From: Escherichia phage vB_Eco_Maverick
Sequence record: NC_073077.1
DNA: 42,624 bases
Strand: one strand, 5' to 3'
Under the pieces are notes generated by a model, which saw only the letters and a program-made list of their open reading frames with translations, was not told the DNA's origin and did not search any database. Made by a program: the position numbers and the translations under genes. This document shows positions 13,402 to 42,624 of the stretch, piece by piece (positions within the stretch are counted from its first letter, which is position 1; each line of letters begins with the position of its first letter).

Positions 13402-13430
13402 AATATAATGCAACCAATCTAATTATGCAA
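13402..13430 (-). promoter_or_regulatory. sigma70-like promoter TTGCAT-N17-TATATT embedded in tandem ATTGGTTGCAT motifs
   Basis: Minus-strand reading aTTGGTTGCATaattagaTTGGTTGCATTATATT; -35 and -10 hexamers separated by 17 nt. Confidence 0.4.
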
Positions 13431-22298: not shown

Positions 22299-22812
22299 TT
22301 AATCTTCCAGTTCGAAATAGGTTTCGACGATTTCTTTTAACTCTGTGTGGAAGTCTTCGACGTCGTCATCTTCCAGCTTGGCGATTGATTTTATCTCGAA
22401 CGATTCCAGCAGGTCGTCGAATTCGTCGTTCGCATCGTCGTCATCACCACCGGCGATAATCGCGGCATACTGTTTGATTTCGTCGCGCATCTCCGCCAGC
22501 GGATCGGCATCTTTCTTGCCTTTGCCTTTCGCTTTTTTAGCCTTAGCCGGTTTTTCGTCTTCGGCGTCTTCGTCGTCGTCATCTTCTACGACTTCTTTTT
22601 TGGCCTTACCCTTCGCCGGTGCTTTTTTAGCTTTAGCCGGTTTTTCGTCTTCGGCTTCATCGTCGCCATCTTCGACAACTTCTTTTTTGGCCTTAGACGG
22701 CTTCTTGTCGTCCTGCTTACCAACGGCAGCGCCAACGGTTTCATAATGCTTAGCGATGACTTCCAGTGCTACTACGCCGCGAGTGATCAGGTTTACGATT
22801 TGCTCAAACATG
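22299..22812 (-). CDS. charged-repeat protein (acidic blocks alternating with Lys/Ala-rich blocks)
   Basis: Start at MFEQIVNL with GGAG Shine-Dalgarno 8 nt upstream; contains two near-identical ~78-bp DNA repeats (22531-22608 and 22621-22696) encoding KKEVVEDxDDEAEDEKPAKAKKA; the longer frame to 22991 lacks an RBS. Confidence 0.55.
22531..22696. repeat. intragenic tandem repeat, two ~78-bp units with a ~90-bp period
   Basis: gcttttttagccttagccggtttttcgtcttcggc... repeated with a few substitutions. Confidence 0.8.
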
Positions 22813-23213: not shown

Positions 23214-23543
23214 ATGAATATCAAAGAAGCAATTGAAGTGTTATCTAATGCAATCCGCGGCGAAGCGGGTAAATCCTGGTATTACACAAATGCGGTGGAT
23301 ACTCTGTTATTTGAAGTGTCCAGATTATCGCGTGCTGAGAAGGAGCTTACCGCGAAGCTGGAATTGCTCAACGGCACGGCAGCAAGCAAGCTGCAAAAAC
23401 ACAATGAAGAAATGGAAGAATACAAAAAGCAGGTTATCCGTTTGCGCAATGAGGGAAAGTCATGGGCAATGATCGCCGAGTTGACCGGAATTAATCAGAG
23501 CACAGTGCGCTCCTGGGTACGCAATAATAAAACTTCAAAGTAA
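23214..23543 (+). CDS. helix-turn-helix DNA-binding protein (putative transcriptional regulator)
   Basis: 109 aa with coiled-coil centre and C-terminal HTH (KSWAMIAELTGINQSTVRSWV); AGGAG Shine-Dalgarno; first gene of the plus-strand block. Confidence 0.55.
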   Translation: MNIKEAIEVLSNAIRGEAGKSWYYTNAVDTLLFEVSRLSRAEKELTAKLELLNGTAASKLQKHNEEMEEYKKQVIRLRNEGKSWAMIAELTGINQSTVRSWVRNNKTSK

Positions 23544-23553
23544 GGCAACGGCA

Positions 23554-25818
23554 ATGAGCTTGATTAAATTCGCTGTAACACGACCCGCTAAAAAAGGCGA
23601 AAAAGCCAGGGCGGAAAACTTCCAGATGACTACCGAAGAGTTTTTCGAATTTATCAATGATGCGAAAGAAATCTCCTCGGTGCATATCAACAAAACGGAA
23701 GATAAAGCGGAGTATGCGCGCCGCAAGCGTAAGGCTGATGGGATTGTGGCTTATACCAGTGACGGATTACGCCGCAAGACCAGTGCGGTGGATCGCTCGA
23801 TCCTGTTCTTCGATATTGACCGTACCGACACCCGCACCCTGCGCCGCTGCCGTAAGGCGTTCATCGACGCGGGACTGGAACATGTATTTCACACCACAAC
23901 CGGCGATCGCCACCCGCTGAAAGGTGGCACGCGTTGCGCTCGTTTCCTGGTGCTCACTGACAAGCCTGTACCGGCTGAAGACCTGGGCCGCGTCCAGTAT
24001 GCACTATTACACCAACTGGGCCTGTCAGATGTGGACTTCGACGATTGCACGAAAGACACAAACCGCCTTATGTACCTGCCTCACCAGCAATCGGTTGTTA
24101 AGTGTCACTACGGCAAACGTGCCCGCGTCCGTCGTCTGCTGCGCCTGGCGGATAAGCTGGGAGTGGAAAAAGAGGAAGTACGCCGCGAACTAACCCAGGG
24201 CGATGACGGCGTGGCGGACGGCATTCTGGATTGGTGCTTCCAGGCCGGATTCGAACCGCTGTCGTCCGGTCGTGGTTATGAAGTGCCATGCCCGAACGAA
24301 CATCTGCACAGCGGCGAAGGGTCGACGGCTATCATGGTCAAGGATGGCGAGATCCGTTTCAAGTGTATGCACACCGGCAACGAGTGTTGCTCGGAACTGA
24401 ACAGACACCAGCACCTGGCGCTACGTCTTATCGGGATCCCGGACCACCTGAACGTCGAACCGCACAACATGTCACGTAAGCAAATAGCCGCCATCCTCCC
24501 AGGTCTGGACGACGAGGAAGTGGAATCGTGCTATGAACATATCGTTGATGCGGTTGGCGACGGCGACGAGTACGGCGGATGTACGGACGCAGACCTGGAC
24601 AACGAGCCGGTTGCACTGTTCAGTAAACACGACCCGATCATCGAGGGGTTGATTAACTTCAAATCGACCTGGTATATGGCGGGCGAGTCGAACATCGGTA
24701 AATCGTTCTACGTGCTGGGCCAAATGGGTGCTGTTGCCGCGGGTATTCCGTTCGGTGGTGCGAAGGTCGTCCAGTCTCATTGCTTCTATTTCGACGCGGA
24801 AGGTGGCGAAGCCTCCAACCAGCGTAAGGAAGCATTGCAGATTAAATATGAGCACGACCTGGACAAGCTGCACATTATCGATCTGCAATCACGCGGCTGG
24901 GATATCACCAGCAAATCCGGCTTGCGTGAAGTTATCAGCTTCATCAACCGCACCGCTAACGGCGAGCCGGTTGGCCTGGTGGCGTTCGACTCACTCAACC
25001 AGACTGTTGCGCTGCGGTCCGCCGATGCTAAACCGTTCGACGAGAACAACGCCAGCGATATGGGCGAAGTGGTCAAAGCGCTGAAGGCCATTGCGGAAAA
25101 TACAGGCGGCAGTGCGGGCGTCATCCACCACCCGGCGAAAGGTGCAAACGGCAGCAGATCCCCCCGCGGGTCCGGCGCGCTGCATGGTGCTGTTGATTCT
25201 GCGTTCTTCCTGGAACAGCCGGACGACAACCAGCCCGGACAACTGAACCTGTATCACGAGAAGGCACGTAACGGCATCAAGCAAGCGCCGCGCGGATTCG
25301 TCCTGCTCAAGTGCAAGGTTAAGGTGGATCTCCGCAAGTCCGAGGCGTTCGAAGCCCACCAGTCCACCAGCACCGGGCCGGACTTCGGTGACGTCGTTGC
25401 CGGTTGGGACGTCAAGCCGATTGCATCCACGCCTCGCGACGAGACTCTTTACCTCGTACCTGTCGCCCTGGCACCGTTCGCTATCGAACAGGCGAAGGCA
25501 GCGGGCAAGGCCGCAGTTAAGGAAGAGAACACCGCCGGACCGCGCACCGAAAAAGAAAAGGTACTTTACGCGGCCCTGGAAAAACTGATGGAAGATAACC
25601 CGGACCATACCGGATTCAGCAAATCGGCAATTGTCCGCCAGGCTGGGCTTGCGAAAGGTGGCACATCGACGAAGGCAATTGACGATATGGTCGAGCGCGG
25701 CGTGCTAGGTTTTTATACAGACCCACACACCGGGGCCATCTATGGGTCGTCGAATATCGTCATCAAAACGAATATACCCATCACGCTTTCGGCGACCGAC
25801 GACGACCTGAAAGATTAA
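23554..25818 (+). CDS. DNA primase-helicase (primase-polymerase-like N-terminus, RecA/DnaB-type ATPase, C-terminal DNA-binding region)
   Basis: N-terminal acidic motif FFDIDRTD and a Cys/His cluster (CPNEHLH...C..H); Walker A GESNIGKSFYVLG and Walker B LVAFDSLNQ; C-terminal winged-helix-like segment FSKSAIVRQAGLAKGG. Confidence 0.75.
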   Translation: MSLIKFAVTRPAKKGEKARAENFQMTTEEFFEFINDAKEISSVHINKTEDKAEYARRKRKADGIVAYTSDGLRRKTSAVDRSILFFDIDRTDTRTLRRCRKAFIDAGLEHVFHTTTGDRHPLKGGTRCARFLVLTDKPVPAEDLGRVQYALLHQLGLSDVDFDDCTKDTNRLMYLPHQQSVVKCHYGKRARVRRLLRLADKLGVEKEEVRRELTQGDDGVADGILDWCFQAGFEPLSSGRGYEVPCPNEHLHSGEGSTAIMVKDGEIRFKCMHTGNECCSELNRHQHLALRLIGIPDHLNVEPHNMSRKQIAAILPGLDDEEVESCYEHIVDAVGDGDEYGGCTDADLDNEPVALFSKHDPIIEGLINFKSTWYMAGESNIGKSFYVLGQMGAVAAGIPFGGAKVVQSHCFYFDAEGGEASNQRKEALQIKYEHDLDKLHIIDLQSRGWDITSKSGLREVISFINRTANGEPVGLVAFDSLNQTVALRSADAKPFDENNASDMGEVVKALKAIAENTGGSAGVIHHPAKGANGSRSPRGSGALHGAVDSAFFLEQPDDNQPGQLNLYHEKARNGIKQAPRGFVLLKCKVKVDLRKSEAFEAHQSTSTGPDFGDVVAGWDVKPIASTPRDETLYLVPVALAPFAIEQAKAAGKAAVKEENTAGPRTEKEKVLYAALEKLMEDNPDHTGFSKSAIVRQAGLAKGGTSTKAIDDMVERGVLGFYTDPHTGAIYGSSNIVIKTNIPITLSATDDDLKD

Positions 25819-25829
25819 ATTTTGCGTGT

Positions 25830-25928
25830 ATTGGTTGCCGATATGGGAATTCCCATATCGCTAAACGGTTAATTTGTGCGCGCATTGGTTGCCATTTTGA
25901 GTGTTTTTATCTGGTCGTATTGGTTGCC
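25830..25928 (+). repeat. three direct ATTGGTTGCC repeats flanking a perfect 20-bp palindrome
   Basis: ATTGGTTGCC at 25830, 25884 and 25919; GATATGGGAATTCCCATATC at 25840-25859. Confidence 0.8.
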
Positions 25929-25978
25929 GTGTAGTGTAAATATAATGAATAGTTATGCAGTTTTATTGCATAAAGTAG

Positions 25979-26128
25979 GCGGGACAGAAAGCGGGACAAA
26001 CAGGGGGCGGGACAAAGCGGGACAGCACCCCCGTCCCGCCCCGGATGACGCGGCTTCCAGAGGAGCGGGACAGCGGGACAGCACCCCAGTCTTTCAGACT
26101 AGACGGGGGTCAACGGCCCCCCTCGTCT
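25979..26128. repeat. iteron cluster: six direct GCGGGACA octamers plus one inverted copy, ending in a 28-nt GC hairpin (internal copy)
   Basis: GCGGGACA at 25979, 25991, 26007, 26017, 26065, 26073; inverted GTCCCGC at 26033; hairpin agacgggggtcaacggcccccctcgtct at 26101-26128; TGCATAAA box at 25967. Confidence 0.85.
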
Positions 26129-26295
26129 GAGACTGAATAAAATCCGGGGATTGCAAAATACACGGCAGCATGATGCGAAGTGCGGTCGTCGATGAACTAG
26201 GCAACCAATGCGGGTTGTATTATGCTGAGTGAAAAATGCAGTTTTCAGCCACAGCTGATATCGATCAACTTTTTCATGCGCGTGATTAATATTGG

Positions 26296-26324
26296 TTGCA
26301 TTCACCCCAGCACCCTGCTATATT
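26296..26324 (+). promoter_or_regulatory. sigma70-like promoter TTGCAT-N17-TATATT inside ATTGGTTGCA motifs
   Basis: TTGCAT 26296-26301, 17-nt spacer, TATATT 26319-26324, about 28 nt upstream of ATG 26353. Confidence 0.4.
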
Positions 26325-26352
26325 GGTTGCACACCAACATGAGGACTGAACA

Positions 26353-26802
26353 ATGGAACACGAAGACCTGGTCGACGAATTGCTTGAGGCTGAGAACAAA
26401 GCTGATTTGCAAGCACGCGCAGCATACATGGTCGGCAACATTAAGAAATCGCGCCACTACGCCGGATTGCGTGTAAAGGCGCAAGAGGACCGAACAATGA
26501 AAGCATTAATCTGGAATTACACAATGGCTGTGGCGAAGCTGTACGAAGCAAAACACACAAACGGCAACGCAGACGACGCGCGCCAGGCTGTCATCCTGGC
26601 CCAGCAGGGAATCATGAACGCGTTCGACGATATGTTTGCCAGCCTGGACGAACTGGAACCGCTGCGCGTGGCAATCTGCGAATATGCGATGGCATTTGCC
26701 CGTGAGCGCCTGGCGTATCGCTTTGGTATCGGCGAGACGGCAGTGACAAACGTCGCCCGGATTAAAGCCCAGCGCGAACTATTCGCCCAGCTTGCGAAAT
26801 AA
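26353..26802 (+). CDS. hypothetical protein
   Basis: 149-aa ORF with GAGGA Shine-Dalgarno; first gene after the iteron region. Confidence 0.55.
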   Translation: MEHEDLVDELLEAENKADLQARAAYMVGNIKKSRHYAGLRVKAQEDRTMKALIWNYTMAVAKLYEAKHTNGNADDARQAVILAQQGIMNAFDDMFASLDELEPLRVAICEYAMAFARERLAYRFGIGETAVTNVARIKAQRELFAQLAK

Positions 26803-26811
26803 GTGGTGAAA

Positions 26812-27093
26812 ATGGGCCGTAGACGAGCAAAACAGCTTTCGTGGCATATTCCCCTGCATTGCATACGAATATGGGCTAAGAATGCGGTTGAGGGCGAATC
26901 GGTATTCTGGTGCTATCGCGACGATGTGAAGCCGTTGACGCAGACTCGCTACTTGCACCAGTTCGCAGCACAACACGATTTCAGGGTGCGGACTTCCTTG
27001 CAACCAATGGGGATTCGTATTACATTACGCCGGAAGCCCGCCGTTGAGCGGGTAGGCAAACACTGGAGACTGAGCAAATGCAAAGAGCGCTAA
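26812..27093 (+). CDS. hypothetical protein
   Basis: 93-aa ORF starting MGRRRAKQL (longest frame begins at GTG 26803); basic, Trp/Cys-containing. Confidence 0.35.
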   Translation: MGRRRAKQLSWHIPLHCIRIWAKNAVEGESVFWCYRDDVKPLTQTRYLHQFAAQHDFRVRTSLQPMGIRITLRRKPAVERVGKHWRLSKCKER

Positions 27094-42323: not shown

Positions 42324-42327
42324 TGAA

Positions 42328-42621
42328 GCGGGACGTCCCGCTTTGTCCCGCCCTGTAAAACCGCATATCTAATCACTTTCATTGCATAAACTCAAAGCGG
42401 GACAGGCGGGACGTCCCGTTTTGTCCCACCCACGAAATGTGCATACCTATTCGAATTTCGTGCATAAAACAAGCGGGACAGAAAGCGGGACAGACAAGGG
42501 GCGGGACAAAGCGGGACAGCACCCAGTCCCCGCCAGTGCTGCCGCGGTTTTCAGCCGATCGGGACAAGCGGGACAAAGCCCAGTCTTTCAGACTAGACGG
42601 GGGTCAACGGCCCCCCTCGTC
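42328..42621. repeat. iteron cluster: GCGGGACGTCCCGC palindromes, about seven direct GCGGGACA octamers, two TGCATAAA boxes, ending in the same 28-nt hairpin (terminal copy, continues into bases 1-200)
   Basis: Palindrome at 42328-42341 and 42406-42418; GCGGGACA at 42397, 42473, 42485, 42501, 42511, 42568; TGCATAAA at 42383 and 42461; hairpin at 42594-42621. Confidence 0.85.
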
Positions 42622-42624
42622 TGA

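Follow-up and report, generated by a model that had tools for sequence, protein, structure and literature searches.

The parS sites in parB/spo0J are short perfect palindromes, conserved across bacterial phyla, that lie within the gene of the DNA-binding protein they serve and have further copies elsewhere. REP/BIME elements with their RAYT transposases, and the Rickettsia palindromic elements, are short hairpin repeats that occupy intergenic positions, frequently at 3′ ends, as well as in-frame positions inside open reading frames (ORFs), and they are patchily distributed among close relatives. The attC sites of integrons are recombination sites at the 3′ end of gene cassettes that are recognised as folded single strands, and their structure is kept by compensatory changes. 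The hr palindromes of baculoviruses have an EcoRI core, are bound by the dimeric IE-1 protein, serve as origins and enhancers, and lie near Bro/KilA-type genes. As for KilA-N itself, few DNA-binding domains are more common among phages and large DNA viruses. The element analyzed here is a perfect palindrome in the genome of Escherichia phage vB_Eco_Maverick (sequence record NC_073077.1), the whole of which, 42,624 nucleotides, is called the window below. This palindrome is very probably an orphan member of a palindrome family of KilA-N genes and not part of a core origin. As judged from the compared sequences, the family is demonstrably widespread and conserved in structure and is native to the KilA-N genes of phages and prophages, and the palindrome is accessory in the genus Dhillonvirus.

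A further point of reference is BstA, an abortive-infection protein of prophage BTP1 that is neutralised by aba, a DNA element in bstA (Owen et al. 2021, PMC8585504). The aba element is 63 bp long, overlaps the start of bstA, acts as DNA, and is functional on another phage or on a multicopy plasmid (PMC8585504). It is non-palindromic, is bounded by CCCGCC direct repeats at its termini, and acts only on its cognate protein (PMC8585504).

The window matches Escherichia phage vB_Eco_CS16 (LR999870.1; genus Dhillonvirus) at ~99.9% identity with few small indels, and this phage is referred to as CS16. The initial annotation had placed a perfect palindrome between two copies of ATTGGTTGCC, immediately downstream of the primase-helicase gene, and this was confirmed in each part. 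The 20-mer GATATGGGAATTCCCATATC occupies positions 25840–25859, the flanking ATTGGTTGCC copies lie at 25830–25839 and 25884–25893, and the palindrome starts 20 nt past the stop codon of a 754-aa helicase-primase ORF (23554–25818). The symmetry is in fact perfect for one more base on either side, which gives the 22-bp sequence CGATATGGGAATTCCCATATCG at 25839–25860, the longest palindrome without a spacer in the window. GATATGGGAATTCCCATATC occurs only once in the window, with no second site at up to 3 mismatches, and it was absent from 100 shuffles of the window. The annotation had also considered such a repeat unlikely by chance in 42 kb. First-order Markov random sequences of the window's length contained a palindrome of at least 22 bp in 5 of 200 trials; from the window alone, chance as the sole origin is thus unlikely and "not absurd", and it is the recurrence across genomes that rules out a chance palindrome. 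A sequencing or linker artefact with an EcoRI core was ruled out by the in-frame copies in KilA-N genes, by the fixed positions across many independent assemblies, and by the compensated variants. The number of EcoRI sites is not unusual (7 GAATTC in the window against 12 expected), and avoidance of this site was dismissed. When single-stranded, the palindrome is computed to fold into a 9-bp stem with a 4-nt AATT loop, with a fold energy of −8.2 kcal/mol as DNA (z −4.1) and −13.7 kcal/mol as RNA (z −4.7), while extension of the hairpin into its flanks was not significant (z −1.3).

The family to which this copy belongs has the consensus GAT-abG-GGA-ATT-CCC-b'a'A-TC, usually translated as D-x-G-I-P-x-S. 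The CS16 copy has this form and the 8–9-bp stem with a 4-nt loop, and its sequence, GATATGGGAATTCCCATATC, is the commonest family member. Within KilA-N ORFs the palindrome lies between the helix and the wing strand; the CS16 copy is instead intergenic. No KilA-N ORF was found in the window, either with a custom hidden Markov model run over all ORFs of at least 40 aa or with tblastn, and a KilA-N protein of CS16 was ruled out as the binder because none is encoded.

Amino-acid conservation was ruled out as the cause of the repeat by degenerate scans, by the variable peptide of the homologues, and by frame-shifted copies in Bacteroidota. A 288-fold degenerate scan, which covers all DMGIPIS codings, recovered 120 stretches, 63 of them exact and 38 with one mismatch at the two loop positions; three or more differences were found in only about 8. 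The peptide varies in the 119 closest homologues of one carrier (DMGIPIS, DTGIPVS, DVGIPTS, DAGIPAS, DIGIPIS, SMGIPID, and others). Under the palindrome code, codon 6 consists of the complement of base 2, the complement of base 1, and then A, and among 80 homologues with a G-I-P core, residues 2 and 6 obeyed it (M-I, T-V, V-T, A-A, I-I) in 64 compared to 29.7 expected. Residues 1 and 7 did likewise (D-S, E-S, V-T, S-D, A-A) in 68 of the 80. With a 1536-fold degenerate DTGIPVS scan, positions 6 and 15 were paired in 16 of 16 KilA-N genes, and the synonymous third bases of Thr and Pro covaried as ACA/CCT, ACG/CCC, ACC/CCG, and ACT/CCA, that is, as all four Watson-Crick types. A sample anchored solely on the C-terminal domain contained DAGIPAS encoded by GATGCGGGAATTCCCGCATC and SMGIPID encoded by TCTATGGGAATTCCCATAGA, both of which are perfect palindromes; more distant subfamilies (QTGLPEE, others) had none. 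In KilA-N genes of Bacteroidota, the exact 20-mer occupies the same position in the domain but is shifted by one base out of frame and is translated as RYGNSHI. Loci read in this way are L279:5094–5826, L209, L202, L228, and L258.

A formal count over 16 distinct variants gave 97.7% paired cells and double changes at 5 of 8 stem pairs. None of 500 shuffles did as well, and the covariation signal was lost when the partner was slid along the sequence. These comparisons demonstrate, as far as sequences can, that the inverted repeat in KilA-N genes is conserved as nucleic acid and not as peptide. Because the compensation occurs at protein-neutral positions, it points to base pairing in a hairpin or cruciform rather than to two half-sites that are read independently. 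G-U pairs occupied 0 of the 128 cells in the family, which weakly favors DNA over RNA; few variants were informative on the strand asymmetry of mismatches (G-T against A-C), by which the two could be told apart. The structure-forming role that the initial annotation had suggested for the palindrome is therefore strongly supported, both by the compensatory double substitutions in the arms of the family and by the computed fold of the CS16 copy.

In terms of distribution, a scan of IMG/VR for the exact 20-mer found at least 120 contigs, with 29 unrelated flank contexts among the matches listed. In a bacterial set with one genome per species (185,579 species, 596 Gb), the exact 20-mer had 82 matches, where our own calculation with 596 Gb and 4^20 predicts ~0.5–1. 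The carriers belong to the Cyanobacteria, Bacteroidota, Chloroflexota, Patescibacteria, Spirochaetes, Verrucomicrobiota, and several proteobacterial classes. Genuine KilA-N ORFs, in genomes with a GC content of 29–65%, contained about 45 of the 80 readable bacterial matches, there translated as DMGIPIS. The Pfam KilA-N domain was confirmed in carriers with four C-terminal partners: BstA-type PF26567, ANT/KilAC, MUG113/T5orf172, and an unknown domain. In lambdoid prophages, non-coding copies were found in the nin region beside the hok/mok promoter (at least 80 IMG/VR contigs), an arrangement that is present at a coverage of at least 80% in 667 of 5426 complete E. coli genomes, with a median of one place per genome. 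Dhillonviruses have further non-coding copies, and others separate a stop codon from an intrinsic terminator or follow a major capsid gene.

Several of these copies have individual features. At the lambdoid prophage loci (L015:6742–7134 and about 80 similar IMG/VR loci), the palindrome touches the −35 region of the hok/mok promoter. The sequence AAACGGTT beside the palindrome in both CS16 and the lambdoid prophages was judged a coincidence, as it belongs to the hok −35 region in the latter and to the duplicated helicase gene end in the former. The copy at L019:4924–4953, whose contig has 56% GC, forms a longer palindrome of 30 bp (GGATCGATATGGGAATTCCCATATCGATCC) and is right behind a major capsid gene. 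The IMG/VR contig L161 has a one-mismatch variant around 2711–2730, in a longer GC stem followed by TTTT and just upstream of a tRNA gene; this variant looks like part of an intrinsic terminator. Tandem pairs of the hairpin, 16–22 nt apart, occur at L097:1394–2810 (−), L352, and L066:13857–13920. L066 has the exact palindrome followed by the variant GTTACGGGAATTCCCGTTTC, while L097, which reads VDMGIPIPGISSLKSDMGIPIS, encodes a KilA-N + MUG113 protein with C2H2 fingers. The very low GC content of the L097 contig (21%) suggests a giant virus or an AT-rich host.

Compared with the described systems, the palindrome has partial likenesses to each. A parS site is read as duplex by a dimer, whereas the arms of this palindrome covary as if they pair; the sequences are unrelated, and CS16 and the carriers show no ParB. 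REP/BIME and Rickettsia elements are specific to a species or genus, multicopy, and 35–150 bp in length, in contrast to a palindrome of 20–22 bp that is usually single-copy, occurs across phyla, and prefers a single gene family as its home. A dispersed repeat of the REP/RAYT type was rejected on copy number, given the single copy in CS16 and the median of one hok-linked place in E. coli. The attC sites are 57–141 bp long, have extrahelical bases and R/L boxes, and need the integron integrase, and the palindrome has none of these. The hr palindromes are about 30 bp, imperfect, and in tandem, and their sequence similarity, as compared by description, is limited to the GAATTC center. A search of a library of papers found no description of the sequence in a microbial context, nor of a KilA-N hairpin or palindrome, and the element appears to be previously undescribed. 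It would be a cis-acting DNA element within the gene of a phage DNA-binding/defence protein, comparable to aba and parS, and it falls outside each of the named families.

The surroundings of the CS16 copy are arranged as follows.

25839–25860, no strand: perfect 22-bp palindrome CGATATGGGAATTCCCATATCG, orphan non-coding copy (symmetry; fold; same 20-mer in KilA-N genes and other contexts)
25840–25893, no strand: 54-bp presence/absence module made up of the palindrome and the second 33-nt repeat copy (Dhillonvirus alignment; 22-locus comparison)
25807–25839, + strand: direct repeat copy 1, 33 nt, made up of the final four helicase-primase codons, their stop codon, a spacer, and ATTGGTTGCC copy 1 (repeat search)
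25861–25893, + strand: direct repeat copy 2, 33 nt, 79% identical to copy 1, with ATTGGTTGCC copy 2 as its 3′ end (repeat search)
23554–25818, + strand: replicative helicase-primase gene, with the palindrome in its 3′ flank (AAA_25; phrog_3228, E=0)
25919–25928, + strand: ATTGGTTGCC copy 3, outside the variable module (invariant in all aligned Dhillonviruses)
25979–26079, + strand: seven GCGGGAC(A) repeats, one inverted; candidate iteron/regulatory array and invariant intergenic core (repeat search; alignment)
26086–26133, + strand: large conserved hairpin CAGTCTTTCAGACTAGACGGGGG...CCCCCTCGTCTGAGACTG (invariant alignment columns; second copy at the genome ends)

The accessory module is set between the helicase-primase stop codon and a conserved region with repeats and promoters. 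Both ATTGGTTGCC copies that flank the palindrome are the 3′ ends of the 33-nt direct repeat. The flank-repeat score is 13–21 in Dhillonviruses compared to a null maximum of 9, and in some Dhillonvirus genomes the two repeat copies have derived variants in common. The exact sites of ATTGGTTGCC in the window are 25830–25839 (+), 25884–25893, 25919–25928 (+), and 26200–26209 (−). It belongs to a motif found throughout the genome, with 23 sites at up to 1 mismatch compared to 3.1 expected.

A search of related genomes, which the initial annotation had recommended, gave a divided result. When the intergenic region was compared across 21 distinct Dhillonvirus genomes, the 54-bp module was carried by 10, and the other 11 were without it. 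The exact palindrome was present in 4 of the carriers (CS16, EE09, LM40P1, and one IMG/VR genome), two genomes had the loop variants GGGGATTCCC or GGGAATCCCC, three had changes in the outermost pair, and bob had stem-breaking changes (GATATGTGGATTCCCATATC). Most genomes without the module had a clean single repeat copy (HK578, PC2, and others); EP23 had a larger deletion, and in Ioannina AATATGG alone is left. The SSL-2009a type is also among the Dhillonviruses in which the module is absent, truncated, or mutated. Dhillonviruses with the palindrome include KarlBarth, PaulFeyerabend, and SECphi18, and TheodorHerzl is among those without it. In INPHARED, the palindrome was found in about half of the ~157 records that have this intergenic region. 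Precise deletion by slipped misalignment classically has its hotspots where a hairpin is enclosed by direct repeats, and since the 33-nt repeats enclose this hairpin, the clean losses of the module in about half of the genus would be explained by this process. Among the genomes that carry the module, pairwise diversity was 0.052 in the stem compared to 0.10–0.12 in the flanks, which is modest, approximately two-fold, evidence of constraint.

An element of the core origin should be conserved in all members of the genus, and the palindrome is absent, truncated, or mutated in 11–12 of the 21. Invariant in the aligned Dhillonviruses were the third ATTGGTTGCC, the GCGGGACA array, the hairpin at 26086–26133, and two ATATTGGTTGCA copies before the next gene. 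Because the module is missing or broken in about half of the genus while the neighboring repeats are invariant, the palindrome is dispensable in the genus and cannot be a core origin part, and the proposal of a cruciform-forming origin element was not upheld. A lesser version of this proposal is an auxiliary element, in which a cruciform or hairpin beside the iteron-like GCGGGACA array aids unwinding or priming by the adjacent helicase-primase. The palindrome does adjoin the helicase-primase gene, an AT-rich stretch, and the repeat array, and in the unrelated contig L029 an orphan copy is also about 1.1 kb downstream of a primase-helicase gene. We nevertheless regard an auxiliary origin role as very unlikely: half of the genus has lost the palindrome or has it in broken form, with an array that does not vary; elsewhere, most copies lie inside KilA-N genes or in nin regions, which have no relation to origins; and there is no general association with helicase genes. 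The apparent family association with primase-helicase genes was transitive and did not involve adjacent genes, and this link was rejected.

The same comparison bears on whether the palindrome is an operator for a dimeric protein encoded by the phage, the other role that had been proposed at the outset. Perfect dyad symmetry would suit such a site, and a small helix-turn-helix (HTH) protein is encoded nearby. This protein of 109 aa (HTH_23 / sigma-70 region 4-like; 23214–23543, +) lies directly upstream of the helicase-primase gene and is annotated elsewhere as a transposase, resolvase, or Gam-like protein. Its gene is kept in Dhillonviruses without the palindrome (bob_50, annotated as Gam-like, with the same gene order across relatives), and relatives that lack the palindrome retain all the neighboring genes, so that site and binder do not co-occur. 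There is a single site in the genome, where more than one is usual; phages and bacteria of other phyla that lack the HTH protein have exactly this sequence; and the genome-wide repeated motifs ATTGGTTGC and GCGGGAC, described below, are better operator candidates. The four-way Watson-Crick covariation fits pairing better than half-site read-out, and with the sequence also present in phages that share no candidate binder with CS16, a dimeric protein binding site is the less parsimonious reading. An operator function is accordingly the least credible of the roles considered, and we consider it extremely unlikely.

Several observations connect the palindrome with recombination. Upstream of the palindrome, the KilA-N gene L462 shares 56–59% identity with its relatives, and downstream of it 88%, and several truncated KilA-N genes continue in unrelated sequence from 2–3 codons past the hairpin. 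At least 5 different upstream modules adjoin the same hok module at the palindrome, some of them with decayed 'ISE*IQ' remnants of the KilA-N 3′ part. In phage vB_EcoS-673R7 (L284), an intact palindrome-bearing gene of the KilA-N/BstA-like type is a reverse-oriented insert in the nin region, divergent from the hok module and 343 bp from it, and to judge from this arrangement a single deletion that ends at the palindrome would yield the common orphan hok arrangement. Sampling anchored on hok found many hok loci that never had the palindrome, and selective retention of the hok-linked orphan is therefore conjectural. Flanking direct repeats were significant in Dhillonvirus, L029, L252, and L235. 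A transposon-like target-site duplication was dismissed, given that the flank repeats are significant in few contexts only and are irregular in length.

These observations suggest a reading in which the CS16 copy is a recombination scar or selfish hitch-hiker. A recombination-prone micro-element, acting through 20–22 bp of shared homology or through a hairpin that provokes breakage and template switching, would have entered the Dhillonvirus ancestor by an illegitimate event that duplicated 33 nt of the target, and would now be inert and in the course of loss by deletion and mutation. The exact position of the palindrome at mosaic junctions, the meeting of different upstream modules with hok, the hok loci without it, the flanking repeats, and the loss of the module in 11 of 21 Dhillonviruses together with damaged copies are all consistent with this. 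On the other side, the stem is about half as variable as the unconstrained flanks among the genomes that keep the module, deep branches of the genus still have the module although it contains a deletion hotspot of its own, and the compensatory maintenance within KilA-N genes is left unexplained. On this evidence, an inert scar is an alternative that we consider rather unlikely.

The position of the palindrome shortly past a stop codon also calls for comparison with RNA elements. Intrinsic terminators and 3′ stabiliser hairpins likewise form a stem-loop at such a position, and a ready-made stable hairpin, acquired horizontally and for this reason alone shared with other phages, may protect the helicase-primase message from 3′ exonucleases or serve as a processing or pause site. 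Its location 20 nt past the stop, the stability of the computed RNA fold, and the other orphans that lie 3–22 nt past stop codons, often just ahead of intrinsic terminators (L015, L019, L029, L065, L176), would agree with this role. In contrast to terminators, the palindrome has no U-tract and its stem is only moderately GC-rich; the sequence 3′ of the stem is GCTAAACGG, without a T-run, and a scan of 25700–26450 gave no terminator-like site anywhere in that range and no promoter-like call at the palindrome. No Rfam covariance model matched at E <= 1 within 25000–27000. The complete lack of G-U cells in the family is unusual for an RNA stem, stronger hairpins lie downstream at 26004–26042 and 26086–26133, and a stabiliser needs no set sequence, whereas this identical sequence recurs across phyla and in unrelated phages, which is not expected of terminators either. 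A role as the 3′ stem-loop of this message thus seems quite improbable.

The function that we prefer for the orphan copy is that of a ligand or decoy. The palindrome would act as a folded strand (single-stranded DNA hairpin, cruciform, or RNA stem-loop) rather than as linear sequence, and would be bound by the KilA-N-domain proteins of resident E. coli prophages, many of which have a BstA-type C-terminal domain. The model for this role is aba within bstA, which switches off BstA when it is borne on replicating phage DNA. A 257-aa carrier protein of E. coli (KilA-N/PF26567), found for example in vB_EcoS-673R7 and E. coli 7/2, aligns with the PADLOC BstA profile in its C-terminal part (E=3e-21) and with BTP1 BstA over residues 125–251 (32% identity, E=2e-9), and among 5426 complete E. 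coli genomes, 137 have the KilA-N gene with the palindrome. Both aba and the palindrome are short DNA elements carried in the coding part of prophage genes from the KilA-N(-like)/BstA family, and there are carriers with the BstA C-terminal domain. Unlike the 63-bp aba with its terminal CCCGCC repeats at the 5′ end of bstA, it is symmetric, 20–22 bp long, near-universal, and located ~170 nt into the gene, in the KilA-N domain; the two have no similarity. Because aba is non-palindromic and the bstA gene of BTP1 has no copy of the palindrome, the relation is one of analogy and not of membership. By this analogy, the palindrome may be a putative decoy for KilA-N/BstA-like proteins, which is possible and on balance doubtful. 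The combined statement, orphan identity together with the decoy role, is put forward tentatively and falls a little short of even likelihood.

A number of points weigh against the combined statement. The lack of the palindrome in BTP1 bstA is one of these, and the specificity of aba for its cognate protein is another, as a universal palindrome would contradict such logic. The palindrome is tied to the KilA-N domain and not to the BstA C-terminal domain, and is also found in KilA-N+ANT and KilA-N+MUG113 proteins. Constraint in Dhillonvirus is only about two-fold, with damaged copies such as that of bob and half of the genus without the palindrome. Orphan copies are often right behind stop codons or ahead of terminators, which an RNA role fits equally, and several are at mosaic junctions, which a purely recombinational origin fits. 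Lastly, the covariation set was partly gathered with patterns of our own choice and its statistics ignore phylogeny, although positions 6/15, positions 3/18, and the protein-level residue table are unaffected by the choice of pattern.

A broader form of the decoy reading, which we consider unlikely, is that the palindrome is a universal 'self' mark that is read by its structure. Folded on replicating DNA, it would be bound by the KilA-N domain and would switch off or titrate KilA-N proteins, including BstA-like ones. The copy within the gene would protect prophage induction, and virulent Dhillonviruses such as CS16, together with many lambdoid prophages from which the gene has been lost, would have pirated the bare hairpin as an anti-defence decoy. 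The site codes for a segment of its own presumed reader domain, and the same mutations would therefore drive the co-evolution of protein and site.

Other repeated motifs were noted in the window. TTGGTTGC, the core of ATTGGTTGC(A/C), has 21 sites compared to 1.3 expected, for example at 13410/13427 (−), 19981/19997 (+), 23016 (+), 26292/26323 (+), and 36730/36743 (−). The sites are mostly intergenic, aligned with the direction of the downstream gene, and frequently in pairs, and ATTGGTTGC(A/C) is probably a genus-specific promoter or operator motif. Positions 26296–26324 read TTGCAT-N17-TATATT, with both hexamers overlapped by the ATTGGTTGC motif, and two start codons are preceded by the leader TTGGTTGCACACCAACA.GAGGAC. 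GCGGGAC has 27 sites compared to 8 expected, in two clusters, 25979–26079 and 42328–42574 plus 4–77. The block at 42470–42624, which runs on into 1–127, is a paralogue of 25975–26133 that includes a large hairpin (CAGTCTTTCAGACTAGACGGGGG..CCCCCTCGTCTGA), and the genome thus has two iteron-like modules. Inverted GCGGGAC units form a second long palindrome of 18 bp, AAGCGGGACGTCCCGCTT, at 42326–42343 and one of 12 bp, CGGGACGTCCCG, at 42407–42418. Bases 1–127 equal bases 42498–42624, which is either terminal redundancy of the assembly or a genuine terminal repeat. Either of the motifs ATTGGTTGC and GCGGGAC may be bound by the 109-aa HTH protein. Relative to LR999870.1, the window has 9 additional bases near 22550 (region about 22540–22580), the record has about 41 additional bases near 26490 (region 26480–26500), and there is at least one substitution in 26260–26280.

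The KilA-N palindrome is unusual in three respects taken together: a 20-bp hairpin is kept by compensation from Cyanobacteria to Patescibacteria, it is read in different reading frames, and it has orphan copies in other phages. It offers a concrete and cheaply testable candidate ligand of the KilA-N domain. A function unrelated to those of aba and parS would make it an element of a new kind. An inert CS16 copy would not alter the fact that the element marks junctions at which recombination recurs, and is thereby relevant to the formation of phage mosaics. If the decoy role is true, the palindrome would amount to an anti-defence device in which 22 bp of DNA take the place of a protein, and it would explain the patchy host range in a much-used genus of coliphages, whose members in BASEL include phages both with and without the palindrome.

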